A DNA stretch of 64,000 nucleotides, taken from positions 1,444-65,443 of the forward strand of contig CALXWX010000001.1 of NCBI GenBank assembly GCA_944392565.1. The letters run 5' to 3'. Source of the stretch: an uncultured Alphaproteobacteria bacterium (lineage in GTDB: Bacteria; Pseudomonadota; Alphaproteobacteria; Rs-D84). Within the stretch, counting starts at the first letter, position 1. Each line of letters starts with the position of its first letter. The notes under the pieces are model-generated. The model had not been told where the DNA came from and ran no database searches. It saw only the letters and a program-made list of their open reading frames with translations. The position numbers and the translations under genes are program-made. Of this stretch, positions 34,004 to 52,510 are shown in pieces.

Positions 34004-34077
34004 TGGTTGGGGCAGCTGGATTCGAACCAACACTGACGGAGTCAGAGTCCGGAGTTCTACCGTTAAACTATGCCCCA
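34004..34077 (-). tRNA. tRNA-Gln (anticodon CTG)
   Basis: The reverse complement is TGGGGCATAGTTTAACGGTAGAACTCCGGACTCTGACTCCGTCAGTGTTGGTTCGAATCCAGCTGCCCCAACCA. The acceptor has 7 bp, the anticodon loop is CTCTGAC and the T-loop is TTCGAAT. Confidence 0.8.
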
Positions 34078-34081
34078 ATGC
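34038..34081. repeat. Left copy of a 44-bp direct repeat (tRNA-Gln nt 1-40 plus 4 flanking nt); the right copy is at 52467-52510
   Basis: An exact 44/44 match, ggagtcagagtccggagttctaccgttaaactatgccccaatgc, was read from both sites. Confidence 0.85.
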
Positions 34082-34152
34082 CTGGCTATTATATGCATAT
34101 CAATCTCAATTTGCAAGCACAAGTTTAACACTTTTCACGGAAATCCACTCAA

Positions 34153-34359
34153 CTACACCAACACAACAAATTTTACACGATTTTCACATTGAATACCTGG
34201 TGCGAAATAGGCTTCGCCCCCAGTAACAACATGTCGCACCGGTTCACGTCTGCCGGCATAGAACCCCAGCAAGAACAGAGCTGGAACGATTAAAAGTACG
34301 ACCTTGCCCTTCATCGCCCCCATTCTATTTTTCCCAATAAAACCACGGCTTTTATTCAC
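34153..34359 (-). CDS. Possible small membrane protein (68 aa, one TM)
   Basis: ORF only; it has a hydrophobic segment VVLLIVPALFLLGFYAG. It could be spurious. Confidence 0.2.
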   Translation of the reverse strand: MNKSRGFIGKNRMGAMKGKVVLLIVPALFLLGFYAGRREPVRHVVTGGEAYFAPGIQCENRVKFVVLV

Positions 34360-34586
34360 ATATTATTTGTTTTTAGCCCTATTTTATGATAAAATATCAC
34401 CCGACACAGGCGACTGTGCTGGGCGTTACAACCCATAACATTAGGTGTCCGTGGGGACACAAAAAACCTCTAACCTTTGGTTGGAGGGCGGCGAATATAT
34501 TGAATAAGCCCGCTATTTCCTAATGTTATAGTTGTAAACCTCCAACCACCTAAATTATGCCTGTGTGGAATTAGACGGAGAGCAGC

Positions 34587-36374
34587 ATGACCAAACAGAA
34601 ACAAACAGCCAACAACCCCCCCCCCCTGCCCAAGACATTGTGGGGATTTTATTTTAAACATGCAATTCATGGTAATGGCTGGATGATTCTGGCGGGTGCA
34701 ATCTTATCATTTATTGTCGCATTTGACCGCGTATTACAGCCACTTATTCAAAGCTGGACAGTGGCAATATTCGAAACACCGGTACCAGCCGGCATGACAT
34801 TGATGGAACATGCATTGCCGACCGTATTGATGATAATCGGATTAAACCTTACTATGACAGTCCTGGGGCAAATCAGGGGATGGCTTGGCACACATTGGGC
34901 TCCCAGAGCATATCGTCAAATATCAGAGGTTCTGACAGCCTATGTCCATAGACAATCTATGTCATTTTGGACAGGTCGTATGGCCGGACAGACAAGCAGC
35001 CAAATGGGCCAAATATCCACCGGGTTTGACGTATTGGGAACACTGATAGATGCCTTTTGTCGTTTGGCGACAATTGTTGTTAATGCAACATTGCTGTTTT
35101 CAGTAAACAGATATGTTGCATACATGTTTTTTGCAATCATAGTATTTAGAGTTCTTTACTCATGGCGATTATCAAAGAAACTGAAAGATGCAACCAAGCA
35201 CCGAGCAACGGTTATCAGCAAATTACAGGGCAAGGTTCTGGACAGTGTGTCAAACTACTCGCTGGTAAAACTGTTTGCACGTTCTAAGCAGGAAGAAGAA
35301 CACTTGGCCCCTATTCGCACAGAACGAGTTCAGGCCACAATTAACACAGGATTCTTACAACGACTGTTTAATGGTGTCCCAGCTGTTTTATGGGATATCA
35401 CAACAGGAATAAATATATTACTGTGCGTATATCTGTATTCCAAAGGCGAATTAACAATCGCAGGTGCAGTCCTTGCGACAAGTATCTATATCGGCGTGTT
35501 TGGCACTATTGCCGCAGTAATTGATATGGTTCCAACAATTATAGAAAAAACAGGTGCAGCTGCACGCGCCTATGAAGAACTGGTATCACCAATCGATGTT
35601 ATGGATGCGCCAAATGCCCCAGATATGCAGGTCACATGTGGCACAATTGAATTCCGCAATGTATCATTCAAATACAAACGCAAATGGGTTCTAAAAGACC
35701 TGAACCTGAAAATCAAATGTGGCGAACGTGTCGGTATCGTTGGCCCATCGGGTGCGGGTAAGACAACATTGGTACACCTGTTGATGCGTTTCTGGGATCC
35801 AACGCACGGCCAAATCCTGATTGATGGACAGGATATCAAAGAATACACCCAGGATTCACTGCGCGAAAATATCGCATTTATTCCACAAGACCCAACAATG
35901 TTTAACCGCACCCTGCGTGAAAACATCGGATATGGCAAAGTAAATGCAACGGATGCGGAAATCCGCCGTGCAGCCAAGCGTGCTGCCGCCCACGATTTCA
36001 TTATGGAAACCGACAAGAAATATGATTCCCTGGTTGGTGACCGTGGCATCAAATTATCAGGCGGTCAAAGACAGCGCATCGCCATTGCACGTGCATTCTT
36101 GAAAGATGCACCTATCCTGGTCCTGGACGAGGCTACATCTGCCCTGGACAGCGAAACCGAAGTCGCAATTCAGGAATCATTTGAAGAACTGGCAACCGGG
36201 CGCACAACGGTTGCGATTGCCCACCGACTGTCGACCCTGCGCAATATGGACCGCATTATTGTAATCAAAGATTGCCACGTAATTGAACAAGGCAGTCACC
36301 AATCGCTGTTGCGCAAACGTGGAGAATATGCCCGCCTGTGGAAAATGCAGTCTGGTGGATTCTTACAGGAATAA
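34587..36374 (+). CDS. ABC transporter fused permease/ATPase (MsbA/HlyB-like exporter), island-encoded; an 11-nt poly-C tract lies at codons 10-13
   Basis: TM helices are followed by Walker A GPSGAGKTT, the signature LSGGQRQRIAIARA and Walker B ILVLDEATSALD. It is a paralog of 2175-3995. Confidence 0.85.
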   Translation: MTKQKQTANNPPPLPKTLWGFYFKHAIHGNGWMILAGAILSFIVAFDRVLQPLIQSWTVAIFETPVPAGMTLMEHALPTVLMIIGLNLTMTVLGQIRGWLGTHWAPRAYRQISEVLTAYVHRQSMSFWTGRMAGQTSSQMGQISTGFDVLGTLIDAFCRLATIVVNATLLFSVNRYVAYMFFAIIVFRVLYSWRLSKKLKDATKHRATVISKLQGKVLDSVSNYSLVKLFARSKQEEEHLAPIRTERVQATINTGFLQRLFNGVPAVLWDITTGINILLCVYLYSKGELTIAGAVLATSIYIGVFGTIAAVIDMVPTIIEKTGAAARAYEELVSPIDVMDAPNAPDMQVTCGTIEFRNVSFKYKRKWVLKDLNLKIKCGERVGIVGPSGAGKTTLVHLLMRFWDPTHGQILIDGQDIKEYTQDSLRENIAFIPQDPTMFNRTLRENIGYGKVNATDAEIRRAAKRAAAHDFIMETDKKYDSLVGDRGIKLSGGQRQRIAIARAFLKDAPILVLDEATSALDSETEVAIQESFEELATGRTTVAIAHRLSTLRNMDRIIVIKDCHVIEQGSHQSLLRKRGEYARLWKMQSGGFLQE

Positions 36375-36388
36375 ATAAGGAGTAACAA

Positions 36389-37255
36389 ATGGCGCAAAAA
36401 GATTCTGACAAAATAAAGACCACCCCAGCTGAGGGGAAAATTGCTGCATCGGTATTGGATGCAGTATTAGAGTTTTGCGAAACGAACGGTCATCAACCTA
36501 ATCCAGAAAGTATGTTGGGAACGTTATACGCGGCTATTTATGCCTATGACCATTCTAAAAGACATTATGATAAAAATGAAAATGACGAAATGTATGCGGA
36601 TAAACTACATAGAGCAAGAGCATTTACATCATACGGCAGAAAGAAAATTCGTGATGCAGGCAAAGAAATTAGCATACGCAAAGCAGAAAAAAATGCCGTT
36701 GGCATTGAACGTGTCTTTCCACGTGCAAAATTGGTGCGTGTAATATTTGGCGAACCTGCATACCAACACATAACAGCACAGAAAAATGATATGGCAGCAA
36801 AAATCTTTGCAGAATATTTTGACACGGTTCTTAATGAAAATTTTTCTAAACGTGATATTGAATTTTTGGAACTGGGGGTTGGTATTGGCGTTACAGATTA
36901 TATGAGAAAAGAATTAGAAAAACCTGCCTTCGTACAAAAAACACAGGCATATAGAATGGGGTATTTTGCAGAAGGCCTACACCCTCGTGCGATAGCGGAT
37001 GCCTATTTATTAACAGAAAGTCGTGTCCGCCAGATACAAAACTGGTCAATTAGAAAATTGCAAAACGATCAAGAGCTGGAAAGATTCTTTAATCTTTACC
37101 AAAATGGCGATATTGATGGCATGCTGGCATTGTTACCACCACAACAACAACGGGCGTATAAATTTCAGCAAGAAAATAAAATGGCGGAATTACCAACAGA
37201 TGATGCTAACAAAGTCGGAGAATGGCTGGCAGACAATTTCAAATTGCAACGATAA
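36389..37255 (+). CDS. Hypothetical protein with a C-terminal sigma-70 region 4-like HTH
   Basis: IADAYLLTESRVRQIQNWSIRKLQ resembles sigma-70 region 4.2. Confidence 0.45.
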   Translation: MAQKDSDKIKTTPAEGKIAASVLDAVLEFCETNGHQPNPESMLGTLYAAIYAYDHSKRHYDKNENDEMYADKLHRARAFTSYGRKKIRDAGKEISIRKAEKNAVGIERVFPRAKLVRVIFGEPAYQHITAQKNDMAAKIFAEYFDTVLNENFSKRDIEFLELGVGIGVTDYMRKELEKPAFVQKTQAYRMGYFAEGLHPRAIADAYLLTESRVRQIQNWSIRKLQNDQELERFFNLYQNGDIDGMLALLPPQQQRAYKFQQENKMAELPTDDANKVGEWLADNFKLQR

Positions 37256-37260
37256 AAGAT

Positions 37261-38355
37261 ATGCAAACACTAGAAAACCTGGAACGGAAATTTTTATCGA
37301 TTATACCAATAAAACCATTTGAATTGGGTGATGTGCGTGCAACCACAGACTCAGATAAACAACTGACAGTCGAACAGGCAAAGCAAGACATTGCAGTATT
37401 GGTACAGATGTTGATAAACACGTATGGGGGCTGGCCTTTTTATCCGAAATTATTGCGGTTGCGCATATTGAATAAACTGAACAGAATCTATGACAAAATC
37501 ACACAACCAATAACCGCATCTGAATTGTTTGCGCAATTAAAACCAATAATTGAAATTATGCCGGATAATCATCTGTGGATTAAACTGGGTGATAATTTGG
37601 CAAAATATCCACGCAAACCACGAATTGATGTTGGCACAAATTTAGCTATAACGCATGGTGGTGGCAAAAAATATTGGATTGATAAAATCGGCAGCATTGG
37701 TGTGATTGCTTTTTCAAAATGCTTTGCACCAGACGACAAAGAAAACATGGAACAGTTCCGCAATCGCATTCGTGATGTTATGGCTGGCACACGCGCAATA
37801 ATCATAGATTTGCGTGATAATGGTGGTGGCAGTCCGCTGATTATGTCAATGATTTGCGATGAAATTATGGGGCCGGTTGGCATTCCGCGCACAAAGCGTA
37901 TGTGGTCGCGCACCACACCCCAGGCACAAGAATTATACCAATATTCCACACTGTCGCGCGACCATATAGACAAAACAGTTGACCCAACAATTGTGGCAGA
38001 TAACACCAAATTCAAATTGCCAACCGATTACAAACCGTTGTATGACCGCCCAATTTATATTTTACAAAATAACAAAACCGCATCATCGGCGGAACACTTG
38101 CAGGCGCAATTACGATATCATCCACAAATGCAAATCGTTGGCTCAAACTCATCGGGGTGTATGCAATATACCAACTATCAAACATTGAAATTGGAGCATT
38201 CTGGTATTCTGATTCAATTAGCCAGTGTATATGCCGAATTCTTTGGAATAAAACACTTTGAAACGCACGGGTTTACCCCCGACATCAAATGCCCAGACGG
38301 CACCGATCCATTTGCCGTTGCAATGGCCCAGATTGACACAAAGGAAAGACAATGA
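37261..38355 (+). CDS. S41 (C-terminal processing peptidase)-like protein; no signal peptide
   Basis: IIDLRDNGGG and NNKTASSAEHL resemble the S41 LRxNxGG and G(S/T)ASA(S)E motifs. It is a paralog of the next gene. Confidence 0.6.
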   Translation: MQTLENLERKFLSIIPIKPFELGDVRATTDSDKQLTVEQAKQDIAVLVQMLINTYGGWPFYPKLLRLRILNKLNRIYDKITQPITASELFAQLKPIIEIMPDNHLWIKLGDNLAKYPRKPRIDVGTNLAITHGGGKKYWIDKIGSIGVIAFSKCFAPDDKENMEQFRNRIRDVMAGTRAIIIDLRDNGGGSPLIMSMICDEIMGPVGIPRTKRMWSRTTPQAQELYQYSTLSRDHIDKTVDPTIVADNTKFKLPTDYKPLYDRPIYILQNNKTASSAEHLQAQLRYHPQMQIVGSNSSGCMQYTNYQTLKLEHSGILIQLASVYAEFFGIKHFETHGFTPDIKCPDGTDPFAVAMAQIDTKERQ

Positions 38356-39506
38356 CCAAGATACCAACGATCAGTGAAATGGAAGAATTATTACTGCGTG
38401 ATTCCAAAACGGCAGATTTGGTTGATGGACGTAGTGCCAAATCAAAATCACCAGACACAAAATTGACCGCAGACCAAGTTCGACATGAAGTATCAGTCTT
38501 TGCGCGAGTGTTAATAAATATATATTGTGGTTGGCCTTTTCATAATGAGGTGCTGAAACGCAAAATCTTGAAGACGTTGGTTGATATTCACAAAAATGCA
38601 CACGATATGACGGCGGCAGAACTGCTGAAGCGGCTGCGCCCTGCGATTGAGATAATACCAGACAATCACATTAAACTGCGAATGATGGGGTATGGCATGG
38701 GGGTGCGTACGGCCCTGCGCAAGCCAAGACCAAATGTCGGAACAAATATTGCAGGTAATAAAAAATTTCATACCACACAACATGGCAACATTGGAATTAT
38801 TGCGGTTCCAACGCTATCAGGCTGGACAGACGATGAACGGAAAATGTTTGAGAAACAGTGGCGCACAATTCTGCCACAGTCAGAAATACTTATCATTGAC
38901 CTGCGCGACAATGGTGGTGGCAACAACAAACCATTGTCCGACATGGCAGATTATATTTTAGGCGATGAAAACTTCCCATTTGCACGCAGACAATATATTC
39001 GCAACAACCCAGATGCCAATGCTGTCAAAAAAATATACGAACATGTAAACGGCACCAAGTTCAATATTAAATCAACGACAGATCCCATTATTTACGAAGA
39101 CAACAGCAACAGTGATACATTACCAAAATTTGATGCAACACGTGCAGGTTTTAATGGGCCAATTTATATCCTGATAGACGGTGGTGTAATGTCATCAGGG
39201 GAACTGATATGCACCCTGTTGCACAACCACCCAAAGGCAAAGTTTGTTGGAACAAACACACGTGGTGGCGAAGTGTATGGCTATAACTATGCGTACATAT
39301 TATTACCACATTCACACATGCAGTTTAATGTCGGCTGTGTATATCGTGAATTATTTACAGAAAATTTCGAACTGAACGGTTATACACCCGACATCAAATG
39401 CCTTGATGGCACCGATGCATTTGCCGTTGCAATGACCGAGATTGAAAAAAGCCAAGACATTACAATCGCAGACACCCGAAAGATAAAGGATAAAGCATGC
39501 AGATAA
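38352..39506 (+). CDS. S41-like peptidase paralog
   Basis: IIDLRDNGGG is present with DGGVMSSGE. It is colinear with 37261-38355, sharing GWPF...DIKCxDGTDxFAVAM. Confidence 0.6.
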   Translation: MTKIPTISEMEELLLRDSKTADLVDGRSAKSKSPDTKLTADQVRHEVSVFARVLINIYCGWPFHNEVLKRKILKTLVDIHKNAHDMTAAELLKRLRPAIEIIPDNHIKLRMMGYGMGVRTALRKPRPNVGTNIAGNKKFHTTQHGNIGIIAVPTLSGWTDDERKMFEKQWRTILPQSEILIIDLRDNGGGNNKPLSDMADYILGDENFPFARRQYIRNNPDANAVKKIYEHVNGTKFNIKSTTDPIIYEDNSNSDTLPKFDATRAGFNGPIYILIDGGVMSSGELICTLLHNHPKAKFVGTNTRGGEVYGYNYAYILLPHSHMQFNVGCVYRELFTENFELNGYTPDIKCLDGTDAFAVAMTEIEKSQDITIADTRKIKDKACR

Positions 39507-40207
39507 AGTTAGAACATCTTGATGCAGAAAGTGCATGGCAACGCATTATTCGCGCCCACGAAAGATATCATACAAACCTTAAAAACTATAAATATAGTTA
39601 CGAGATGTTCATCCCTAACGATGACAGAATGCGCGAAATGTTTGAGCAGCCAAAACTGACCGAACAACAGATCCAGCACTATCACGATATTTTTGTTAAG
39701 GAAATATACAAACTGTCAGATTTAACGCACAAAGATGCTGATATAAACAGCGCAATACAGAGATTCCAAAACAGAATTAAAACACTTATTGCACCATTAT
39801 TGCCAGCATGGAATGCAACAATGCCAGAAACATTAAGCATCAAATGCACATATGGATACGGTGGCGGATACTCATCAGGCAGGAACGCAACCATTCTGTT
39901 CCGCATGAGTCGCGACAAGCGAAATGATTATGGTATATACCTGTTACTGATGCATGAATTTGTACACATCTTGATAGAAGAACAGATTATAGGCAAGTAT
40001 AATGTTCCACAAGACCTGAAAGAACGCATTGTTGATATTATCGGTCTGGAATTGTTTAACAAGCCAATCCAACAAATGTATGAGAATTCATTTGCTAATT
40101 CATATATCACACCAGCGGTTATTCGCACAGACCTGGAATCTGCAGTTAAAAAAATGATGACGGACTATACAGCACTAAAACAAGCCCAAGTCACAAAGGA
40201 CAGATAA
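39497..40207 (+). CDS. Hypothetical protein with an HExxH motif (LLMHEFVHIL), putative zinc metallopeptidase
   Basis: Motif only. Confidence 0.4.
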   Translation: MQIKLEHLDAESAWQRIIRAHERYHTNLKNYKYSYEMFIPNDDRMREMFEQPKLTEQQIQHYHDIFVKEIYKLSDLTHKDADINSAIQRFQNRIKTLIAPLLPAWNATMPETLSIKCTYGYGGGYSSGRNATILFRMSRDKRNDYGIYLLLMHEFVHILIEEQIIGKYNVPQDLKERIVDIIGLELFNKPIQQMYENSFANSYITPAVIRTDLESAVKKMMTDYTALKQAQVTKDR

Positions 40208-40758
40208 TGAAAACAGAACAGTTCGAAAACGCAATAAACGACATACATAGCCGAGTAAAGGAACTGGTTATGAATCAGTTGCCAACACTGGATGGTATTA
40301 TGCAGGTCGATAAAATGTCGCCAGAAGACCGAGTTTTCTATGAGGCATACAAAAAATACGGCAACAGAAATCACACTTGGCAAGATTTCAAAGCAATGTT
40401 TAATGGCGATATTGCAACCATGCAGAAAACAGTAAAACATTGGAGGACATGGGACGAAATAAATGATGCATTATCACAAGCATACAATTTAATACCAGAA
40501 ATAAAAAGGTTAATAGACAAGTATAAGTTAGAAACTATCGATGTAACAAAGCCAGAAGAATTTGAACAATATCCAGATTTAGTGGCAGTGTGTGAAGAAT
40601 ATCGCAAAGTGTACAATAGCACACATCAAAATTATTCTACATTTAATCCGCAGGTTGCAAAATTAGAACAAGAATTCGAGAAAAAAGCAAAAACGATAGA
40701 TAAAAACGACAAAAAAGCCAAGATAGATTTAGTTGTAGAATATATAAAAAAAATTTGA
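40207..40758 (+). CDS. Hypothetical protein
   Basis: A 183-aa ORF, translationally coupled (ATAATGA). Confidence 0.4.
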   Translation: MKTEQFENAINDIHSRVKELVMNQLPTLDGIMQVDKMSPEDRVFYEAYKKYGNRNHTWQDFKAMFNGDIATMQKTVKHWRTWDEINDALSQAYNLIPEIKRLIDKYKLETIDVTKPEEFEQYPDLVAVCEEYRKVYNSTHQNYSTFNPQVAKLEQEFEKKAKTIDKNDKKAKIDLVVEYIKKI

Positions 40759-40771
40759 TGAATACATTGAT

Positions 40772-41314
40772 TTGACCAATGGCAATTTTGTTATTGGCGA
40801 ACGCATAGAATTGTATCGTAAAATTATATTACAAGACCAACAAATATTAGAACAGGCAAAAAATTTTGATAATTTATCCGCCGTACAAAAAATTGATTTA
40901 GCCCGTATGATATTAAACAAAAGCGCAGAAATTACCGGTACGCCAACAGGCAAAGTGACTCAAGATGACGCCATACTTGGACCACACGCACTGAAAGGGA
41001 ACCAAACCGCAGGATACGCACACAAAGAGAAAGAATTTTTATTCAGAGCAGAAATTCTTGAACGTTATCCTCTGGCACTTTTTCTAAAAGATTTAGCACA
41101 CGAAGATGCACACAGAATAGACTACTATAATGCAGAATACGGAATGATTGGCACACAACTTATGAAATTTGTGGAAGACAATTATCTGAATGATAATGAA
41201 ATAGGTGTTGAATTATACAAGAAATTTGCCACAGAACAAAGTTCGTACTATATGCACGACACAGTTGCAGCCGCTTTACGTTACAATATAAAATATGACA
41301 CAAAGGATATATAA
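40772..41314 (+). CDS. Hypothetical protein with an HExxH motif (LAHEDAHRIDYYNAEYG)
   Basis: Motif only. The HExxH followed by a YG spacing is shared with 46588-47436. Confidence 0.4.
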   Translation: MTNGNFVIGERIELYRKIILQDQQILEQAKNFDNLSAVQKIDLARMILNKSAEITGTPTGKVTQDDAILGPHALKGNQTAGYAHKEKEFLFRAEILERYPLALFLKDLAHEDAHRIDYYNAEYGMIGTQLMKFVEDNYLNDNEIGVELYKKFATEQSSYYMHDTVAAALRYNIKYDTKDI

Positions 41315-41784
41315 TGTCGCGAATTCATGTCATTGGTGCGCCAGGGTCTGGTAAAACAACATACGCGCGGCGGTTGGCGGCCGCACGCAATTTACCCCTG
41401 TGCCATTTAGATGAGATTTTTCATGACAATTCTGGCACCACTCCACGCAAACGCACCGAATCCGAACGCACAGAAATGGCGGCTGAATTTGCCCAGGGCA
41501 AAGACTGGATATCCGAGGGCGCATCATTTTCCGACTGGGTAAATCCAATCTTAAAACGTGCAACCGAAATACACATTGTATCCCCATCACGCACGATACG
41601 CGTTTGGCGACAGATTAAACGGTATATCCGCCGGAAATTTGGTATCGAGCAGACAACATACCGCGAAACATTACGCGGTCTGTGGGGCGGAATAAAATGG
41701 ACATGGAACTATGACAGTGATACATTACCAGTAATATTAAAGAAAATCCCAAAACGCACCAAAATCAAAAAGGTAAAGGCATAG
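41314..41784 (+). CDS. P-loop kinase of the FlaR/topology-modulation (adenylate-kinase-like) family
   Basis: MSRIHVIGAPGSGKTTYARRLA...LCHLDEIF matches the FlaR-like family pattern. Confidence 0.6.
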   Translation: MSRIHVIGAPGSGKTTYARRLAAARNLPLCHLDEIFHDNSGTTPRKRTESERTEMAAEFAQGKDWISEGASFSDWVNPILKRATEIHIVSPSRTIRVWRQIKRYIRRKFGIEQTTYRETLRGLWGGIKWTWNYDSDTLPVILKKIPKRTKIKKVKA

Positions 41785-41786
41785 AT

Positions 41787-42596
41787 ATGAAATACGTACC
41801 AGATATGAATTTATTGCGTTCTTATTCTGATGTTACAGATCGCCTGCCGGCACCGACACTGGCAGTGTTTGAATTTGACAATAAAAAACTGATTTACTGT
41901 GGCACCAAACATTCCGCAGACGTGTCATTTCAACTGATTGATAAATGTTTTAATGACTATGACATAGATTGCGTAGTAACCGAAGTACACAGAAACGCAG
42001 AACCTGTCAAAATCCAAACACATACACGCAGCCGCAATGAATTGACATATTCTGCACGACTGGGGTACAAGCGTGATATTCCAGTCATACTGGCCGATCC
42101 CAGCAAGTACGATTGGTTCACAGATTTATTAAAGGTTGATAGCAATTACCTAAAACCATTACAGGTGTTTTTCATGCTGGACGATGCGTACACATACAAA
42201 CAACACTTCAAAGAAAACTATTCAATTGAACGCGCGCTGAAAAATACAATTCACAAATACTGGGACGACACACTGCCCCCACCAATGACCCGGGAAGAAT
42301 TTCAAGAATACTTTCTGGAACAATTCGGCATTGAAATCACCGATGATAACATCAGTGATATTTACATCACACACCCTGAATGGCACTGCCCAGACAACAA
42401 TGGCAGTCTGTTGAATAAAATGTGGTCAGATATTGGCATGATTTCACGCGACCCATATATGGTAAAATGCATTTTTGATGCAGTAAATTCACACGATTGC
42501 GTTCTGGCAACATTTGGCGCAGGCCACCTGAACAAGCAAATACGGATTCTGGAACAGGCATTCGGCAAACCAACATTTGTAGATATAAAGGCATAG
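41787..42596 (+). CDS. Hypothetical protein
   Basis: A 269-aa ORF. No family was recognised. Confidence 0.4.
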   Translation: MKYVPDMNLLRSYSDVTDRLPAPTLAVFEFDNKKLIYCGTKHSADVSFQLIDKCFNDYDIDCVVTEVHRNAEPVKIQTHTRSRNELTYSARLGYKRDIPVILADPSKYDWFTDLLKVDSNYLKPLQVFFMLDDAYTYKQHFKENYSIERALKNTIHKYWDDTLPPPMTREEFQEYFLEQFGIEITDDNISDIYITHPEWHCPDNNGSLLNKMWSDIGMISRDPYMVKCIFDAVNSHDCVLATFGAGHLNKQIRILEQAFGKPTFVDIKA

Positions 42597-42598
42597 AC

Positions 42599-43135: not shown

Positions 43136-43149
43136 AACAGGGATTGAGC

Positions 43150-43755: not shown

Positions 43756-43781
43756 GTACAAACAGACAAAAAGGTACAAAT

Positions 43782-44297: not shown

Positions 44298-44317
44298 CAT
44301 ACACTACGGAGAAAGAA

Positions 44318-44620
44318 ATGAAATACACCAAAGGCGGAAACTTTACCACCCAAGAAATGAGCATGCTGGAAACTCTGCAAGAACTGGAAGATGTGGTTCA
44401 TATTGCAAAAACAATGTGTCGTGGCATTCATAAAGACGGCGGCATGCCAGATTCCGCACGTGGCGATGCAAAATACGCCCACACAAACCTGGACGAGGCA
44501 GAAGAATATATATCTTTCCTGCGCAAGAAAATAAAAATTGCGTTGGAACACGTGCCAGAAAACATACAAAAAAAAAGAACAGCTATAAAATACTGCCCAA
44601 TCGGGCGGTTATTATTTTGA
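44318..44620 (+). CDS. Hypothetical protein (100 aa)
   Basis: The Shine-Dalgarno sequence acggagaaaga precedes an ATG. Confidence 0.4.
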   Translation: MKYTKGGNFTTQEMSMLETLQELEDVVHIAKTMCRGIHKDGGMPDSARGDAKYAHTNLDEAEEYISFLRKKIKIALEHVPENIQKKRTAIKYCPIGRLLF

Positions 44621-45385
44621 ATGCGATTGCAGTGCAATGTTTTGATAATTGCTTTCGTACAATTTGCGCGCGGCATCGGATTTTAAGACCTCTAAGGCAC
44701 GCGGTTTCAGTTTTAATTGTTCCGCGCATTTCACACCACGCGACCGGGCGGCACGCATCAATTTGCCCATAATTTTCAATTCCAATTTATAGTATTCTGC
44801 ATTATCTGGCATGTCTGGAATATCTGTCAGCAACAACAAAATTAAATCACCAATGTTACGGATGTTTTTAACCGGGCGCAGGTCAATAATATGAAACCGC
44901 CCAGCCCCAGCATCAAACAGCATATTGCCTTCGGATGGATCAATTGTGAAATTGGTCGTGGCCAGGTGGTTCAAATCATCAACCAGTTTGTTATACGCAC
45001 TTTGTGGCGCAGATGCCATTATGTGCATCTTTTCAATCGCCACAGATACCGCATTGGCCCGTTGTTGGGCGGTCAATGGTTCTTCGACCAAATCATTTGT
45101 TGGGATGCCATCAACCTTTTTACAGACAGACAACACCACAGTCCCGGACATTGGGTCTGTTAGATTATACAATGGCTGGCCAAAATTGCGGCGACCGTGT
45201 ACATTGTCGGCACGCATATACCGATATGCACCGGATGACAACCTGTCCCGAAACGCTTTATCAATCTTGACAGTATGCGGCACACGCACAACATAACGAC
45301 CGGCATCGTATGTGGTGGCCTCGGTCCCCGAACCAATCGGTTTTTGTGAAATTGCGGACAAGATTTCCGAAATATTCAATCGCAT
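44612..45385 (-). CDS. Protein-kinase-like fold protein (putative)
   Basis: The catalytic-loop-like segment IDPSEGNMLFD...GRFHIIDL resembles the HGDxxxxN...DF/L pattern of aminoglycoside/Ser-Thr kinase-like folds. This is a weak call. Confidence 0.35.
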   Translation of the reverse strand: MRLNISEILSAISQKPIGSGTEATTYDAGRYVVRVPHTVKIDKAFRDRLSSGAYRYMRADNVHGRRNFGQPLYNLTDPMSGTVVLSVCKKVDGIPTNDLVEEPLTAQQRANAVSVAIEKMHIMASAPQSAYNKLVDDLNHLATTNFTIDPSEGNMLFDAGAGRFHIIDLRPVKNIRNIGDLILLLLTDIPDMPDNAEYYKLELKIMGKLMRAARSRGVKCAEQLKLKPRALEVLKSDAARKLYESNYQNIALQSHSK

Positions 45386-45912
45386 TATTCCGCCACCTTT
45401 GAAAACATTTTCATATCACGTGGTTCGCCACGCAGAACAAAGTACTTACGCAAGACACCCTCACACTCATAACCACAACGCAGTGCAACCGCAGCCGAAC
45501 GAATATTCTGTTTATCAAGGGTCAATTGCACACGTTGTAATCCCATGTCAGCAAACCCCATTTCGGTCAGTTTATTTAATGCGCGTGTCATAATGCCACG
45601 GCCATTAAAGCCATGCGCCAGCCAATAACTGATTTCACCCATGTTGTCGTCTGTATCCACAAAGCCAATCTTGCCCACAATATCATCCGCCACCATGATA
45701 AAGTAAGCGCATTTATCATCGCCGTATGATTTTTCAATATTTGCCAGTGTTTTATCGGTTGTGGTATAACCATCAACCCATTCCAAGAATTCGCCCAGGA
45801 ATTCACGATTGGCGTTTATAACCGACAACAACCGTTCGGCATTTTGTGCCGTTGGCTCAAGTTTTACCAGCCGGAAATCACCCATATCAATAATGCGTGG
45901 AAACGAAACCAT
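45385..45912 (-). CDS. GNAT family N-acetyltransferase (RimJ/RimL-like)
   Basis: FNGRGIMTRALNKLTEMGFADMGLQRVQLTLDKQNIRSAAVALRCGYECEG matches the GNAT core. Confidence 0.65.
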   Translation of the reverse strand: MVSFPRIIDMGDFRLVKLEPTAQNAERLLSVINANREFLGEFLEWVDGYTTTDKTLANIEKSYGDDKCAYFIMVADDIVGKIGFVDTDDNMGEISYWLAHGFNGRGIMTRALNKLTEMGFADMGLQRVQLTLDKQNIRSAAVALRCGYECEGVLRKYFVLRGEPRDMKMFSKVAE

Positions 45913-46502
45913 TACTTACCCTTATATTCCGACTTCAGTTTTGTAAAGACCAACTGGTCCATAAATGTGCCATCACTTAGCATAGTTGATGCACGAATAC
46001 GACCATCCAAATGGAAACCACTGCCACTGATAGACTTTTGCGATTGTACATTATCCCCCATACATTGGCGCATAATTCTGTTTGCCCCCAATTCCTCAAA
46101 TGCCTTTTTCATTATCAAGGCCCAAATTTCTTGATTAAAACCCTGGCCCTGAGCAGACTTCACAAACCATACATTGCCAGACTGCACAGATTTATTATTA
46201 CTAAAATAAAATATTCCATGATGGCCAATCAATTTGCCGTTATGAAACACGTACCACACCGCGCCATTTGGATTGACATCACGTTCCTGCTCTTGCTGCA
46301 TTTGCTTTAATGTTTCATCCAAAGATTCCGGCAACGGTTTTTTATAGTCGGGCGTCCAATTCACATACTTAAAATCACCAGGGTTTTCATTCTGGATGGC
46401 ATCCCAAACCAACCGGGCATTTTCTGGGGTCGGTTGCAAAACACGCAATTCCAGACGTTTGGTTTTCAGATCCCGTCTAAATATTTCATAAAATTTTTCC
46501 AT
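45912..46502 (-). CDS. GNAT family N-acetyltransferase
   Basis: NVWFVKSAQGQGFNQEIWALIMKKAFEELGANRIMRQCMGDNVQSQKSISGSGFHLDG is GNAT-like. Confidence 0.6.
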   Translation of the reverse strand: MEKFYEIFRRDLKTKRLELRVLQPTPENARLVWDAIQNENPGDFKYVNWTPDYKKPLPESLDETLKQMQQEQERDVNPNGAVWYVFHNGKLIGHHGIFYFSNNKSVQSGNVWFVKSAQGQGFNQEIWALIMKKAFEELGANRIMRQCMGDNVQSQKSISGSGFHLDGRIRASTMLSDGTFMDQLVFTKLKSEYKGK

Positions 46503-46587
46503 CTACTTTTTCCTTTGATTATCCTGACAATTTTATCATAAAAATCCCATATTCCCAAATAAAAAGCCCCCAATCGGGGGGGCAATT

Positions 46588-47436
46588 TTACTTTCCCTTT
46601 TCTATCATTTGCTGCGCCATCATTTGTAGTGTCTGTCGTGTTGCATTTTCGTATTCATAACGCAACAATTTCAATTTTTGTTTTAACTTTTCAGGCACAT
46701 CATAGCCAGAACTGTACAATCCACGACCATTAAAAGTTAAATATGCACCCCCAACAGAATTAAAATTCTTGGAATACTGGGGCGACAAATTGCCTAACAA
46801 ATGTTGTTTTATTGTATCGTCATTCTGACCGGCACAAGCAAGCACTATACGGCGTTGAATCTGTTGCATGTGTTGGGCAATGTACCAATTTTTTCTGTTC
46901 AACAAATCGTCAATGCCGTACGAAACCGCCATACAAACCTCATCAAATGTTGGAACACCTGTGCCAAGATATGCGGTTGCATATGCGGAAACCTCATCAA
47001 GAGCATACAGTCCCGATATTTCATAATAGTTTTTCATGGTAAACAAAGGGTTGCCATATTTAGCATTTTCCAGATGCTTTGTTTCATGTGCAATCGTCTT
47101 TGGTTCTTCCAATCTCAATAATTCTGCAGTTTCCCGAATAACATCATCTGGCCCCAGAATTAAATCCGGTGCGATTTCATAACGGTAAACTATAACATCA
47201 TTGCTGCCATAACAAGTGTCCCCACCAATCATTGGCTGCCTTCCAGAACGATACGCATCGATATTTAAACTATTTATCGTCCTATTCACATATATAATTT
47301 TAACCTGTTTTTCGGGTTTGTTTTGTGGCGCATCAAGAACAGACGACTGATTTGTCGTCTTTGGTTTAAAAAAATTCAAGATTTTTTCTAAAGTTGCCAT
47401 AGCAACGATTATTGACAACAATACATCATTTGTCAA
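46588..47436 (-). CDS. Hypothetical protein with an HExxH motif (IAHETKHLENAKYG)
   Basis: Motif only. The start is uncertain. Confidence 0.4.
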   Translation of the reverse strand: MTNDVLLSIIVAMATLEKILNFFKPKTTNQSSVLDAPQNKPEKQVKIIYVNRTINSLNIDAYRSGRQPMIGGDTCYGSNDVIVYRYEIAPDLILGPDDVIRETAELLRLEEPKTIAHETKHLENAKYGNPLFTMKNYYEISGLYALDEVSAYATAYLGTGVPTFDEVCMAVSYGIDDLLNRKNWYIAQHMQQIQRRIVLACAGQNDDTIKQHLLGNLSPQYSKNFNSVGGAYLTFNGRGLYSSGYDVPEKLKQKLKLLRYEYENATRQTLQMMAQQMIEKGK

Positions 47437-47506: not shown

Positions 47507-50332
47507 ATGAAAGCAGATGCACACAAACAGGTTCAATATTTACGCCATGGGATGGAACAATTCCTGGCCGATGAAGACAAACATATCACCAATGGCGCAC
47601 CGCGCCTGCGTGGCGAACAGTACTTTGCGCTGGGCGCATTGACCAAGCTGTCCGACACCCAAATTGCGGCCAGTTATTACAAACTGCCCACTGGGTTTGG
47701 TAAAACCGTAATGTTTTCATACATGGCCCAGGCGTATCTGCTCCAGGCACGCGCCAATGGTGACACAAAGAAACTGGTTATATTGGTGCCACGTTTGAAT
47801 TTGATTAACCAAACCAGCGACAAACTGGACAGCTTTGCCGGATTTAGTGCATCGGAATTTAGCGGCCGCACCAAGGACACCGATGCAGACATCATCATTT
47901 CAACATACCGTTCACTGGATAAACTGGTGGAAACCATTGGGATTGAAAATATCGGCCTAATCTTTGCGGACGAGGCCCACCATGTCACCGGCGACAAAAT
48001 TTCCCAAACAATGACCAATTTGATGAAATCGGTGCCTACAATTGGTTTTACCGCCACCCCATCATACGATGCTGACAAATCGGTTGGCAATGTACTGAGG
48101 ACAGAAATATTTGCAATGACGATTGCCGATGGCGTGCGTGGCGGAATGTTATCACCGGTAAAAAACACCCTGTATTGTTCCAGTATTGTATATGACCTGG
48201 AAAACACACCTGCAACCAGTCAAGGCGAATATGATTATAACAGTATAACCGGTCAGATTGATACAGACACACTGACCAGCGAAATTGCAGACATATACAT
48301 CAATGGCGTTGACGAAGACACCGGTCGCCGATTTATTGATGCCAAGGCAATGATAAACTGTCCCAACATTGAAATGGCAAAACGTCAGGCCGATGCAATT
48401 AACCAACGGGCCGGCCACATCATCGCACGCGCATTTTCATCAGACATGAAAGATTTCGAGATTGAAAAAGCAAAATTCATTGCCGGCAAATACCAGGTTG
48501 CATGCCAGGTTAACACCATGACCGAGGGCTTTGACGACACCACAGTCAGCCTGTGCATAAACTATCCAACACGTTCCGCCGTTCGTGCCGAACAGGCCGC
48601 CGGACGTGCAATTCGTCTGAATGAATCTGATCCGCATAAAATCGCATTTGTAATCGATACAATTTTCAGAAAGCACGACAGTGAAACCAGCGACACCGCT
48701 CTGCAAACCGCACGACACGCAAAACAAGTTTTGTTCAAAGACATCGCCGGCGGAATGGTATTATTCCCAGAAAATTTCAAGGATGGCATCACACATGACA
48801 AACACCATCCACACACCCGTGGCAACCACAAAACCGTAAAACCATATGAAATCATTACATCAACGGAAACACTGCTGGATTTGAATCGTGTCGATACAGA
48901 ACGCGCCAAGGAAGAAGAAATACCAGAAAAAACCGATGAATGGTTGACTGCTACAGAACTTATGAAATATATTTTGGGTGGCAAGGATAAAATTTTACAA
49001 AAACTAATCGCTTTGACCAAAGATATGCCAGGCAAGATTGAAACAAGACAATCTGGCAGCAACACCCCTCTGTGTCTGCATATCAGTGCGATTGAAGAAT
49101 TTTGCCAACTATCAGAATTAAAAATGGTTGGCAGTATACAGCCAAAGTCGAAAGACTGGTTGACCGCAGACGAACTTCGAAAATATTTTGTAGGTCAATC
49201 AGAAAAAATATTAGCAAAACTGCGAGAACTAGCAGAAAAAATGCCAGACAAAATTCAACAAAGAAAATCCGGAGGTGCAACTCCACTATGTCTACATATT
49301 AGCGGAATTGAAGAATTTAGACTTTTATCAGGCCTTGAAAGAAGAACGGAAATCCAACCAAAGACCAAAGACTGGTTAAACTCAAAAGAGGCAAGCCAAT
49401 ATTTTAAAGCAAAACAAATGATCGTTTTGCAAAAAATGAATGAATTAGCTGAAAAGATGCCAGACAAGATTCAGAAAAGACAATCTGGTTCTCTGACACC
49501 ACTATGTGTACACATCGGTGCAATCGATGACCTGGCAAAATATTCGGGATTAGAAAGAAAAGGGAAATTCCCAGCCAAAACAAACGATTGGCTGACAGCA
49601 AACGAATTACACATGCACATCAGAGCAAAAGCCGATAAAATTCTAGAAAAACTCAAAGAATTTGCAAATATGATGCCTGATAAAATCCAACAAAGAGAAA
49701 TCTTCAACGGCCAGTCTCCTTTATGTCTACACATTAGTGGGTTAGATAAGTTTATACAGCTTTCCGGATTGGAAAAAAGAACCACTATTTCTAAAAAGAC
49801 AACCGAATGGTTAACTGCTGATGAATTGACCAACCATTTTATTGGTGGCGCAGGTAAGATTTTAGGAAAACTACGAGAACTGGCCGCTAAAATGACAAAT
49901 GAAATTCAAATTATGCAGTCCGGCTCTCGGCAAGTTCTTTGTCTGCATATTAGTGCTCTGGACAAATTTGCTAAATTATCAAAACTAAAAAGACAAATAA
50001 AACTACAAGCAAAGACCAATGACTGGTTAAATGCAACAGAGCTAGCCAAATACTTTATAGGGGGCAGAGATAAAATATTAAAAAAACTTGATGAATTAAA
50101 AACAACGATGCCAGACAAAATACAAAAAAAACAAAATGGATCCCACACGCCCCTATGCCTGCATATCGATGCACTGGATGAATTTACGCGTTTATCCGGT
50201 TTAACAAGACGTGGCGAAGTCACCCCAGAAAAGTTCCATGCCGGAACTAAAGTTGTCAAGGCAATGACCCAGATGGCAGAATCCAAGAAACAAGCAAAGG
50301 ATACCATCACCCCCGACAACCAATACGAATAA
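47507..50332 (+). CDS. SF2 (DEAH-type) helicase with six C-terminal ~73-aa tandem repeats
   Basis: Motif I is KLPTGFGKTV, motif II is IFADEAHH, and motif VI is QAAGRAIRL. Repeats of the form DWLTA.EL.KYF.G...KIL.KL.EL..KMPDKIQ.R.SG..TPLCLHIS...F..LSGLE.R span about 48935-50235. Confidence 0.75.
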   Translation: MKADAHKQVQYLRHGMEQFLADEDKHITNGAPRLRGEQYFALGALTKLSDTQIAASYYKLPTGFGKTVMFSYMAQAYLLQARANGDTKKLVILVPRLNLINQTSDKLDSFAGFSASEFSGRTKDTDADIIISTYRSLDKLVETIGIENIGLIFADEAHHVTGDKISQTMTNLMKSVPTIGFTATPSYDADKSVGNVLRTEIFAMTIADGVRGGMLSPVKNTLYCSSIVYDLENTPATSQGEYDYNSITGQIDTDTLTSEIADIYINGVDEDTGRRFIDAKAMINCPNIEMAKRQADAINQRAGHIIARAFSSDMKDFEIEKAKFIAGKYQVACQVNTMTEGFDDTTVSLCINYPTRSAVRAEQAAGRAIRLNESDPHKIAFVIDTIFRKHDSETSDTALQTARHAKQVLFKDIAGGMVLFPENFKDGITHDKHHPHTRGNHKTVKPYEIITSTETLLDLNRVDTERAKEEEIPEKTDEWLTATELMKYILGGKDKILQKLIALTKDMPGKIETRQSGSNTPLCLHISAIEEFCQLSELKMVGSIQPKSKDWLTADELRKYFVGQSEKILAKLRELAEKMPDKIQQRKSGGATPLCLHISGIEEFRLLSGLERRTEIQPKTKDWLNSKEASQYFKAKQMIVLQKMNELAEKMPDKIQKRQSGSLTPLCVHIGAIDDLAKYSGLERKGKFPAKTNDWLTANELHMHIRAKADKILEKLKEFANMMPDKIQQREIFNGQSPLCLHISGLDKFIQLSGLEKRTTISKKTTEWLTADELTNHFIGGAGKILGKLRELAAKMTNEIQIMQSGSRQVLCLHISALDKFAKLSKLKRQIKLQAKTNDWLNATELAKYFIGGRDKILKKLDELKTTMPDKIQKKQNGSHTPLCLHIDALDEFTRLSGLTRRGEVTPEKFHAGTKVVKAMTQMAESKKQAKDTITPDNQYE

Positions 50333-50376
50333 AACACCGCCCAACCGGGCGGTATTTTATTAGTCAAACAATATAG

Positions 50377-51570
50377 TTATTCCATATCCCGTGCAGACTG
50401 CCGCTGCAACAATAACTCATTTTGCAAATGCGCAATTACCTTTTGGGGCTGTATCACTATATCATAATTGGTTTCAGAATCAGCATCTTTACGCTGGCCC
50501 GTAGAACGAACAACATCAAAAAAATGATCTGGCGTCAAATTCGGATACACTTGCTTGGCCATGGCATAGACACCAACCAGATAAGGTGTTGACCAAGACA
50601 AACCACCAGTTCCCGTATAGACGTAGTTATCATGCCCACAAAAACCTGCCAACGTACGTCCCCCGGCCGGCACTAAAATCCTGTTAGAATCACCTGTACC
50701 GCGAAGACGGTCATATTCATAAGACCCAACACTATTTGGATCAGAATTCAAAGTTCGATGAATTCTGCTAAAGCAAGCCTTTTCTCCATAAAAATTCCAA
50801 GGATCAGTGGTCAACACTAAAACCCCACTGTTAATAAGCTCATTTATCAACTCAGTACATTCTGGGCTTTTACCCAACATTCCCCAACTAATCGATACCG
50901 CAGAAATACGTTTGTCCTCTGGCAGGCGCAAATTCATAAACAGAATTTTACGTAACGCCTTGGCGTAATTAGAAAAATAAATCTCCCATTGCTTGCCAGC
51001 ATGATCTGACTGAACAAACGGCTTTTCATCTGGTGCACCAGAATAAAAATTTGCTGCAAAATAAACCAATTTTGCATCAGGGGCAACCCCTATACTTTTA
51101 CCGCAAGCCAGACTAGACACTGCTGTTGCATGCATATTTGCAACCAATGGCACATCAGATGGATACCCAATACTTTCATAATGAATCAAGTTATCCTTAA
51201 TTTCCTGATGCGCAGTATCCAATGGATTATCAATTATAGCAATGGTGACACCGCATCCCGTTATACCACGTTCATGCAATTCACGCACCCCAAGCCCAGG
51301 ATCTTTCCCTGACTCTAATATCTTATTTGGCACGAACCCATCTGGCAACTTGTCTGCCCCCGGGAAGACAACATTGTTATCAAAACTCATAACCTTTAAA
51401 GCCTCGCCAGCATCTGATAAATTTACATCAGAAACATCCACATCCAGCAGGGAAAAATCGAATTCACCCATATCCTTAATTGATTTGGAAAAATCAGGAA
51501 TGGCTTTTCTGTGCAAACTCTGTGGTTGTGCGCCTGGATGAATCTTGAAAACAGCAAATTTATTTTCCAT
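50377..51570 (-). CDS. Subtilisin-like (S8) serine peptidase; no signal peptide
   Basis: The Asp is in GVTIAIIDN, the His in MHATAVSS and the Ser in GTGGLSWSTPYLVGVYA (GTSxAxP-like). The Shine-Dalgarno sequence is gaggtaa. Confidence 0.65.
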   Translation of the reverse strand: MENKFAVFKIHPGAQPQSLHRKAIPDFSKSIKDMGEFDFSLLDVDVSDVNLSDAGEALKVMSFDNNVVFPGADKLPDGFVPNKILESGKDPGLGVRELHERGITGCGVTIAIIDNPLDTAHQEIKDNLIHYESIGYPSDVPLVANMHATAVSSLACGKSIGVAPDAKLVYFAANFYSGAPDEKPFVQSDHAGKQWEIYFSNYAKALRKILFMNLRLPEDKRISAVSISWGMLGKSPECTELINELINSGVLVLTTDPWNFYGEKACFSRIHRTLNSDPNSVGSYEYDRLRGTGDSNRILVPAGGRTLAGFCGHDNYVYTGTGGLSWSTPYLVGVYAMAKQVYPNLTPDHFFDVVRSTGQRKDADSETNYDIVIQPQKVIAHLQNELLLQRQSARDME

Positions 51571-51578
51571 GCATTACC

Positions 51579-52124
51579 TCACCGTTCCAAAATCTTTTCC
51601 AGAATGTATTCGTGATGCCATTCGCCGTCAATGAATGCGGTGTCGTGTAAAATACCGACAATTTCATAACCTTGCTTTAACAGATTACCAAGCGAACGCG
51701 TGTTTTTATGTCGAACACCACTTTGTAGTACGTGAACATTATTTTCACGGGCCCACCTTTCAATAATTTGCTTAAATTTTGTCCCCAGACCATTTGATGT
51801 ATATTGTTCTAACATAGTTGTTGCTGTGCTTGCCACACGTCCGGAATAAGGATGACCAACTTGTTTCTTATTTATGTCAGCCATACCAATAAGTTTATTT
51901 CCATCCCACGCACCAACAAACAAATTATTTGGATTGTCATAAATTTGAATAGATTTTTCTTTGTCTTTTTTGGGTTGACCTGCATACTGCCATGTCCATT
52001 TAGCCCCAGGACCGCTTGCAAATTTACTTAAATATTTCATAACGTCTTCATAATCCGTACCACGAATACGGCGAATGGTTACAACCTTGCCATTTTTTAA
52101 CTTGAATTTAATTGCGCGCCTCAT
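51579..52124 (-). CDS. GNAT family N-acetyltransferase
   Basis: GHPYSGRVASTATTMLEQYTSNGLGTKFKQIIERWARENNVHVLQSGV is GNAT-like. The Shine-Dalgarno sequence is gggggatt. Confidence 0.55.
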   Translation of the reverse strand: MRRAIKFKLKNGKVVTIRRIRGTDYEDVMKYLSKFASGPGAKWTWQYAGQPKKDKEKSIQIYDNPNNLFVGAWDGNKLIGMADINKKQVGHPYSGRVASTATTMLEQYTSNGLGTKFKQIIERWARENNVHVLQSGVRHKNTRSLGNLLKQGYEIVGILHDTAFIDGEWHHEYILEKILER

Positions 52125-52466
52125 TCAATCCCCCATACATTATTGGGTAATATTTTATCATAAAATCTGGCAGTTAGCAAATAATGCCCAACCGGGCGGT
52201 TTTTATTTGACAAAGAAAATTCCACAGCCTAATATGTAAAAAATGTGTAAAATGTATGCGAAAAGCAAATATCGAATCCCTACAGATTTTTCTGAAAAGA
52301 TACCCCAAAATTCCTGTGTAAAAAATATGTAAAACTGAAACTATATACGGACCAGCTTAAACCAGCCTGTATGCAGTGATATGCACAAATGTTAAACGGC
52401 CATTTTTGCCCGTGATTCAATCTGTATTATGCGGAAATCTGGGATTTTTTGTTATGTAGCATATGT

Positions 52467-52510
52467 GGAGTCAGAGTCCGGAGTTCTACCGTTAAACTAT
52501 GCCCCAATGC
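52467..52510. repeat. Right copy of the 44-bp direct repeat (partial tRNA-Gln 5' part) bounding the island
   Basis: Identical to 34038-34081. Downstream sequence diverges from the tRNA. Confidence 0.85.

Follow-up and report, generated by a model that had tools for sequence, protein, structure and literature searches.

A probable integrase-less mobile island of mirrored polarity at tRNA-Gln(CTG) in Candidatus Enterousia-like gut Alphaproteobacteria

Results

A tRNA-Gln gene and a truncated 5' copy of it bracket 18.4 kb of DNA

The 64-kb stretch of alphaproteobacterial DNA analysed here (the window) contains a tRNA-Gln(CTG) gene and, beside it, an 18.4-kb interval at 34082-52466 which the first-pass annotation had taken for a genomic island. 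ARAGORN and the tRNA model of Rfam (62.9 bits) placed the gene on the minus strand at 34004-34077. The 44-mer GGAGTCAGAGTCCGGAGTTCTACCGTTAAACTATGCCCCAATGC was found exactly twice in the window, at 34038-34081 and 52467-52510, as the first-pass annotation had reported; a third copy was absent from the window at up to three mismatches (shuffles expect 0 matches). The repeat corresponds to tRNA-Gln nucleotides (nt) 1-40 plus four upstream nt (GCAT), i.e. nt -4 to +40, and its second copy is a 5' fragment of the tRNA without nt 41-74, so that the unusual duplication of the 5' part which had been read from the sequence was borne out. Direct repeats derived from the tRNA thus bracket the insert, and the insert lies upstream of the intact gene, in reverse polarity. 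Similarity of lower identity runs on past the repeat into two promoter-like regions (85% over 81 nt), and the intact tRNA-Gln of the window is identical in sequence to the tRNA of relatives with an empty site. The features of the two boundaries are as follows, with "native" and "element-borne" naming the origins proposed below.

34004..34077, minus strand: intact tRNA-Gln(CTG); nt 41-74 (34004-34037) would be the native 3' half and nt 1-40 (34038-34077) the element-borne 5' half
34038..34081, minus strand: left 44-bp repeat copy, resembling a right attachment site (attR-like); tRNA nt 1-40 plus upstream GCAT
34082..34547, no strand assigned: conserved integrase-less left end (arm), with a small open reading frame (ORF) at 34153-34359 (minus) and the paired motif TGTGAAAATCGTGTAAAA at 34171-34188 (minus)
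34088..34116, minus strand: putative element-borne sigma-70-type promoter TTGCAA-17-TATAAT from the promoter scan, now upstream of the intact tRNA
52127..52466, no strand assigned: conserved non-coding right end (arm), with the hairpin GCCCAACCGGGCGG at 52186-52199 and paired TGTAAAA at 52235-52252 and 52317-52334 (plus)
52467..52510, minus strand: right 44-bp repeat copy, attL-like; putative displaced native 5' fragment (nt 1-40 at 52467-52506) plus GCAT
52518..52546, minus strand: putative native tRNA-Gln promoter TTGCAA-17-TATAAT from the promoter scan, now attached only to the fragment

Related gut bacteria have the same site unoccupied

Exact matches to proteins of the window came from metagenome scaffolds of human or animal gut. 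When GTDB species representatives were scanned with the CBAH protein encoded nearby, 25 loci (L009-L033) came up, all from uncultured Alphaproteobacteria or Candidatus Enterousia, one of them a circular genome of 958 kb. Enterousia is placed in the order Rs-D84, and its genomes measure about 0.75-1.0 Mb (PMC12306168). The island amounts to about 2% of a genome of roughly 0.9 Mb.

In the sister species L009, positions 204-973 were colinear with window 52900 down to 52467 and then 34037 down to 33702, at 87-93% identity and with one intact tRNA-Gln, which reveals an empty site over about 300-400 bp on each side. The site was likewise empty in L025, and it was occupied in L042 and L045, two independent assemblies of the same species whose core is 98-99% identical to L025; the identity of L042 to the empty L025 resumes exactly at tRNA position -4. 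Unoccupied sites with the flanks joined through one tRNA are therefore seen both in a sister species (L009) and within one species (L025 vs L042/L045). Most relatives have the order unk840, unk233, autotransporter gene (minus strand), tRNA-Gln, 0.1-9 kb of variable DNA and CBAH, and none of the island genes was found at the tRNA-Gln locus in most of the relatives L009-L033.

The orientation of the locus also varies. The tRNA-Gln with about 300 bp of its surroundings is on the plus strand relative to CBAH in 16 species and on the minus strand in four species and the window. A SurA-TIM-GrpE block is inverted in several species too, and small inversions recur at this tRNA-Gln hotspot, one of them in L042/L045 with its breakpoint inside the island ABC gene.

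Junctions and ends are common to copies in other lineages

The same junction after the anticodon loop was found in four other lineages, L012, L032, L035 and L042/L045. In L032 an interval of 4.3 kb separates the 5' fragment (1959-1998) from the full tRNA (6296-6369). In L012 the full tRNA and the fragment are about 0.9 kb apart, the 0.9 kb being made up of an N-terminal remnant of GNAT181, a 166-residue ORF with a Nudix-box-like motif (a likeness at motif level) and the conserved right end. L035, one further locus from a scan of metagenome contigs, shows the right end and the fragment adjoining CBAH, and similarity there ends at the tRNA 5' end of the fragment. L042 and L045, 98.5% identical to each other, were found by a homologue search with the peptidase gene S41a of the island.

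The island sequences were much more alike than the genomes that carry them. The left end (34082-34547) was 89.3% identical to L032 5819-6295, where core genes reach 66-75%, and the right end (52127-52466) was 96.8% identical to L032, 98.1% to L035 and 93% to L012, against 65-82% for core genes and about 70% for native intergenic DNA between the window and these species. The cargo behind these conserved ends is wholly different among the window, L032, L012 and L035. In L042/L045, by contrast with the 72-75% identity of the core, the cargo itself was 95-96.5% identical at the nucleotide level (window 36267-38351 and 39337-40095). Ends at 89-98% and cargo at 95-96.5%, compared with a core at 65-82%, point to a horizontal origin; together with the empty sites in L009 and L025 and the homologous islands, they uphold the earlier proposal of a horizontally acquired island. 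The gap between cargo and core further suggests that the spread was recent. The first-pass annotation had called the element "old or immobilised", and on this evidence "old" appears doubtful.

Metagenome contigs of other samples end at 52137 (the start of L002, at the inner edge of the right arm) and at 34044 (the end of L007, inside the repeat). Such contig ends may stem from strains that occur together and differ in the cargo behind their common ends.

Just past the anticodon loop every fragment departs from the tRNA sequence, and two variants of this departure were seen. The window and L032 have the junction ...CTCTGACTCC|ACATATGCTACAT in common, and the variant ...CTCTGACAGCC(C/T)ATATGC is found in L012 and L035; written from the loop onwards, the fragments of the former read ...CTCTGAC TCC|ACATATGC and those of the latter ...CTCTGAC AGC C(C/T)ATATGC. 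The tRNA identity common to all copies spans nt -4 to +37, from which a crossover in or beside the anticodon loop may be deduced.

The intact tRNA and the fragment have different promoter regions

The stretch upstream of the tRNA fragment, window 52511-52845, matched the sequence that precedes the intact tRNA at the empty site of L009 with 90.6% identity. It is thus the native upstream region of the tRNA, takes in the start of the autotransporter gene, and leaves the fragment with the promoter that is found at empty sites. The sequence now upstream of the intact tRNA (34082-34547) had no counterpart at empty sites. Its promoter bears GTGTTAAAC...TTGCAAATTGAG, and alignments showed the surrounding block of about 90 nt to be identical in the L032 and L042 island copies, recognisably homologous in L046 and absent from the empty-site loci. 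These results suggested that the element may supply the promoter for the restored tRNA.

Integrase and excisionase-like genes adjoin the element promoter in relatives

Directly beside the element promoter, L042 and L045 encode a 60-residue HTH_17 protein and a 227-residue integrase with Arm-DNA-bind_3 and SAM-like (central) domains. The integrase gene, a truncated one, is fused with the final codons of the ABC exporter gene and is followed by the local inversion and then by window-like cargo. L046, a 1.5-kb contig of a more distant host, has a variant tRNA-Gln(CTG), the homologous promoter, an HTH_17 gene and then an integrase gene, in which the start of the Phage_integrase catalytic domain lies in a shifted frame and scores below the Pfam threshold (E=6e-5, 23.3 bits against a 27.1-bit cut-off). 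An integrase gene at the element end is therefore present in truncated form in L042/L045/L046 and is absent from the window. Because of this gene order, the island family is predicted to have xis and int at its att end, where they would separate the promoter from the ABC operon. The family enzyme would be a tyrosine integrase with an Arm-DNA-bind_3 domain and an HTH_17 excisionase-like partner. Instead of these genes, the window and L032 share an integrase-less left end with the small ORF (34153-34359, minus). Among the matches listed in pooled Pfam scans, no tyrosine integrase was found in the variable regions of related loci.

Paired motifs mark both island ends

The paired motif TGTRAAA-N4-TGTRAAA occurs three times in the 64 kb, at 34171 (minus), 52235 (plus) and 52317 (plus), where shuffles expect 0.025. 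All three belong to the island ends, at distances within 90-232 nt from the two junctions, and have opposite orientations at the two ends. The island ends of L032, L012 and L035 contain the motif as well; L009, L015 and L033 lack it. These pairs may be arm-type binding sites, and we treat them as candidates for such. The right arm of the window contains about 82 extra nt (52253-52334, compared with L012 9687-9706) that duplicate the TGTAAAA pair; L032 likewise has two pairs, and L012 and L035 have one.

Other kinds of element were considered and rejected. The sequence ATTTTATSATAAAAT, found near both ends, is a self-palindrome that occurs in the core (8971) and inside the island (46530) as well and overlaps promoter-like sites of the consensus scan, and was discarded as a terminal inverted repeat. 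A transposon, Tn7-like or other, was discarded since no transposase domain was found and the duplicated 44 bp are tRNA sequence with a promoter. For a viral origin, exact-pattern scans of IMG/VR with the junction and with the element promoter gave no match.

The cargo is a set of accessory genes

Between the two arms the interval contains the following features.

34587..42596, plus strand: nine-gene cargo operon (ORFs and Pfam) with an ABC exporter, a 288-residue protein, two S41 paralogues, a 236-residue HExxH protein, a 183-residue protein, a 180-residue HExxH protein, a 156-residue P-loop protein and a 269-residue protein
about 42596..43003, plus strand: frameshifted pseudogene, matched by tblastx in two frames at 52-58% amino acid identity to the intact 180-residue ORF L014:457-999 (minus)
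43144..47436, no strand assigned: genes for a 203-residue protein, GNAT185 (FR47-like), 100- and 257-residue proteins, GNAT175, GNAT196 and a 282-residue HExxH protein
47507..50332, plus strand: ResIII/DEAD helicase (Pfam) with about seven C-terminal repeats of about 60-70 residues
50377..52124, minus strand: S8 subtilase and GNAT181 (Pfam), in the same direction as the displaced native tRNA promoter

Most of the gene list of the first-pass annotation stood. Pfam recovered the ABC exporter, the two S41 peptidases, four GNATs, the P-loop protein, the ResIII/DEAD helicase and the S8 subtilase; the translations show the three HExxH motifs and the helicase repeats, and the pseudogene has its homologue in L014. 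The labels that found no family match were the "kinase-like" 257-residue protein and the sigma-70 region-4-like regulator. The helicase repeats (KTxDWLTAxEL...LCLHI) span residues about 480-930 in tandem, and the L041 homologue aligns over the same C-terminal region.

Homologues of the ABC exporter, P-loop, GNAT181, S41, helicase and HExxH genes were found in shuffled order in L038/L039 and L041 (NCBI GCA_965320355.1), L041 having in addition genes for an APH-type kinase, a methyltransferase, an MFS protein and an S51 peptidase. The cargo is a shuffled set of accessory genes that probably has roles in export and in modification or processing. The S41a and S41b genes form a tandem pair of paralogues (window 37222-39506) whose 3' ends share 78% nt identity. 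In L042/L045 there is a single gene of 384 codons (L045 2132-3286) that matches S41a up to window 38351 and resumes from 39337, a pattern that suggests a deletion through recombination between the paralogues.

The island has terminators of its own kind, as had been claimed. Hairpins of the type GCCCAACCGGGCGG occur in the window only at 44595, 50339 and 52186, and the palindromic terminator family of the core is absent from the interval. The core terminators (aaatcccgc...gcgggattt type) are dispersed, near-identical palindromes at the ends of core genes, at 1585-1617, 4769-4797, 5358-5388, 15142-15169, 21805-21836, 31215-31245, 57061-57088, 60682-60720 and 63509-63542.

Neighbouring RNA-like sequences and a second element at the same tRNA

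An Rfam scan of 30000-56000 returned the tRNA and one sub-threshold sRNA-Xcc1 match outside the island, and nothing else. That match (RF02221; 52730-52842, plus; 35.3 bits, E=0.008) falls within the leader that precedes the gene for the 1398-residue PMP-repeat autotransporter, and by eye a similar sequence is seen upstream of the L033 autotransporter gene, at about 6200-6340. The leader with this match may be a structured leader RNA.

On the 3' side, the final 18-20 nt of tRNA-Gln recur as a near-copy (tggttggggcagctg) at 33833-33850, 156 nt downstream of the intact tRNA. Conservation of the block around it (33726-33852) amounts to 92-97% in L014, L020, L026 (two copies) and L018 and exceeds that of core genes. 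Comparable 3' tRNA fragments are present about 150 nt downstream of the tRNA in L009, L011 and L025, and also in L014 and L020, contigs where no intact tRNA was found. The near-copy may be what is left of an att site from a classical integration at the 3' end, or else a small RNA.

L015 (707-9340) and L033 (1-5966) contain a separate element, inserted at the CCA end of the same tRNA-Gln and encoding a large serine recombinase of 514 residues, with an internal deletion in L033. Its recombinase ORF reads antisense across tRNA nt 74-42, so the C-terminus of the enzyme would differ between the integrated and the excised forms. The cargo of this element includes an AAA_21 ATPase and a REP_ORF2-G2P-like protein.

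Discussion

Our preferred reading, which we hold to be likely, is that an integrated mobile island occupies 34082-52466, with mirrored polarity and of the tyrosine-integrase type, and belongs to a family whose target is tRNA-Gln(CTG) in Candidatus Enterousia-like gut Alphaproteobacteria. The attP site of such an element would be made up of the element promoter, the tRNA from nt -4 to about +37/40 and the ACATATGC arm, and its junction can be reconstructed as follows.

Reconstructed attP junction: ...GCATATAATAGCCAGGCAT + tRNA nt 1-40 + ACATATGCTACAT...

Recombination in or next to the anticodon loop would join the 5' half of the element to the native 3' half, giving the intact gene at 34004-34077, and would leave the native promoter and 5' half stranded at the opposite island end, where the fragment at 52467-52510 now lies. 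The duplication would fall on the 5' side because the element carries its own promoter and 5' half. The copy in the window would then have lost int and xis and become an orphan. Having lost them, it cannot be expected to move by itself; the conserved ends with their TGTRAAA pairs may still permit mobilisation in trans. The same integrase-less end variant occurs in the window and in L032, whose cores are about 70% identical. It probably moved after the integrase was lost, whether in trans, like a CIME (see below), or through homologous recombination.

Several observations weigh against an integrase-driven island. Neither an integrase or excisionase gene nor a remnant of one was found in the window, by Pfam, NCBIfam and PADLOC or by tblastn with the L042 and L046 proteins, which agrees with what the first-pass annotation had noted on the integrase; integrase, transposase and serine recombinase domains were all absent from the window ORFs in the three domain searches. 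In every copy found, the integrase gene is truncated or frameshifted, and no intact enzyme was seen. The adjacent order AT789-tRNA-AT1398, the exact ancestral arrangement of the two autotransporter genes, for which the first-pass annotation had proposed to check relatives, was found in none of them. Among about 30 contigs of the window's own species there was no excised circle or empty allele, and no contig joining the two autotransporter genes was found in that species. Both tRNA copies within one genome share a species-specific C/T at nt 16, which fits gene conversion or homologous recombination as well as a site-specific crossover. The content of guanine plus cytosine (GC) in the interval, 0.413 against 0.423 in the rest of the window, equals that of the core. 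GC was accordingly dropped as an uninformative marker of foreign origin, being undistinctive because the donors would be congeners. In the comparison of composition that had been proposed, the support came from codon usage, modestly different in the interval (pooled relative synonymous codon usage, permutation p=0.0035); its tetranucleotide distance was also higher.

The strongest alternative is RecA-dependent homologous recombination without any site-specific recombinase, through a Campbell-type circle with one 44-bp copy or through cassette exchange via the ends. It would account for the lack of a recombinase in the window, L032, L012 and L035 copies and for the host-specific nt-16 variant in both tRNA copies of a genome; no long identical stretch other than the tRNA is shared by species with flanks about 70% identical, and varied cargo behind conserved ends looks as if the ends served as homology arms. 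Against this, merely 40-44 bp of homology are on offer, int and xis genes stand at the att end in L042/L045/L046, and the end-specific paired motifs resemble protein-binding arms. Moreover, similarity stops exactly at tRNA -4 (L042 vs L025) and at the tRNA 5' end of the fragment (L035). We give this explanation only a small chance.

A much slighter one is left to an origin in situ, in which the tRNA-Gln and its promoter were duplicated locally, one copy was truncated and genes gradually accreted at the hotspot, with no mobile element involved. The similar promoters at equal spacing on both copies, a GC content equal to the core and a tRNA-Gln neighbourhood that is variable in all relatives, with the tRNA flipping between species, would suit such a course. 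It does not fit with identical junctions and near-identical ends across species with 65-75% core identity, with presence and absence inside one species, with cargo 95-96.5% identical across species or with int and xis genes that adjoin the element promoter. The excess of island over core similarity contradicts this origin, which appears largely refuted.

Insertion by the large serine recombinase encoded beside tRNA-Gln in sister species is hardly credible. The ORF with Resolvase, Recombinase and Zn_ribbon domains at L015:748-2292 (minus) does enter the tRNA, with its stop codon at nt 42-44 near the nt-40 junction, and among the matches listed it is the only intact recombinase in the scanned variable regions next to the tRNA. 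It lies on the opposite (3') side of the tRNA, however, with ends unlike those of the window island, and the window has no such gene. The far end of the L015 element (about 9338, ...atcgt|CAACCAAGAATTAAAATGCC) puts its crossover at the extreme 3' (CCA) end of the tRNA, and the serine recombinase was therefore rejected as the island enzyme. Equally negligible is an assembly artefact or chimera: the window does come from metagenome assemblies, with contig breaks inside the repeat (L007 34044, L008 34067, L037 52481) or near the right end (L002 52137), but Scaffold_324 (L001 and L006) covers 21247-64000 with the whole island and both junctions, about 17-18 further places are reported with the same neighbouring genes, independent GTDB genomes (L012, L032) show the same architecture, and Logan contigs break exactly k-1=30 nt into the repeat because k=31.

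An integrated mobile island at tRNA-Gln(CTG) would mean that strongly reduced, uncultured gut Alphaproteobacteria still exchange sizeable sets of accessory genes across species. One locus offers a natural series, from empty sites through sites occupied with int and xis to integrase-less orphans with varied cargo. It covers the rare case of tRNA integration on the 5' side, where the element is obliged to bring a working promoter for the host tRNA, and it opens the att core, the arms and the promoter takeover to direct tests. Island finders that assume a duplicated tRNA 3' end, or that require an integrase, would miss such elements. A bolder picture, possible but on balance doubtful, is that these genomes of about 0.9 Mb host trans-mobile, cargo-swapping, integrase-less islands that control a possibly single-copy tRNA-Gln(CTG) through its promoter and 5' half, with addiction-like retention and re-use of the native promoter for GNAT181 and S8. 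If it held, imprecise loss of the island would inactivate tRNA-Gln and so favour retention, and the displaced native promoter would drive GNAT181 and S8 on the same strand.

Among known systems, the classical tRNA-targeting islands and prophages carry P4-type tyrosine integrases (Williams 2002, NAR 30:866, cited in PMC1635311 and PMC6563490). The window island resembles them in its tRNA target, in an att identity block that ends at a tRNA loop and in its variable cargo; the arm-binding-domain integrase and the AlpA/HTH_17-type partner are likewise shared, here in the relatives. The polarity is mirrored: here the block extends from the loop towards the 5' end, where theirs extends towards the 3' end, and the insert sits upstream of the tRNA gene. 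Recombination that uses the 5'-distal part of a tRNA gene has been documented, though it is uncommon, and archaeal cases are among the examples (PMC6563490, which cites Zhao and Williams 2002). The serine-recombinase element of L015/L033 has the same target and genus and also carries defence-like cargo (the AAA_21 ATPase), but differs in enzyme class, in its sublocation at the acceptor/CCA end, on the opposite side of the tRNA, and in having no end sequences in common with the island.

Cis-mobilisable islands flanked by att sites and without recombination genes, known as CIMEs, are described for the ICESt family of Streptococcus thermophilus. The window island is like them in that both att sites are intact with no integrase or excisionase gene in the window, that relatives with int and xis use the same site, and that the integrase-less end is common to the window and L032. 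It is unlike them in that mobilisation in trans is here our deduction, with neither conjugation genes nor an intact integrase seen in any related copy.

A close parallel is an element that integrates into a tRNA gene in reverse orientation, reportedly described by Zhao and Williams (2002, J Bacteriol 184:859; cited in PMC6563490 together with archaeal cases). As reported, that element agrees with the window island in duplicating the 5' part of the tRNA as its att segment, in having to supply this 5' part and a promoter, and in an integrase gene that stands beside the restored gene, here in relatives only. The window island differs in its host, a reduced-genome gut alphaproteobacterium of Rs-D84 (PMC12306168), in the tRNA that is targeted and in being without int and xis in the window. 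The window island is thus a further member of the known reverse-polarity type of tRNA island, represented here by an integrase-less copy.

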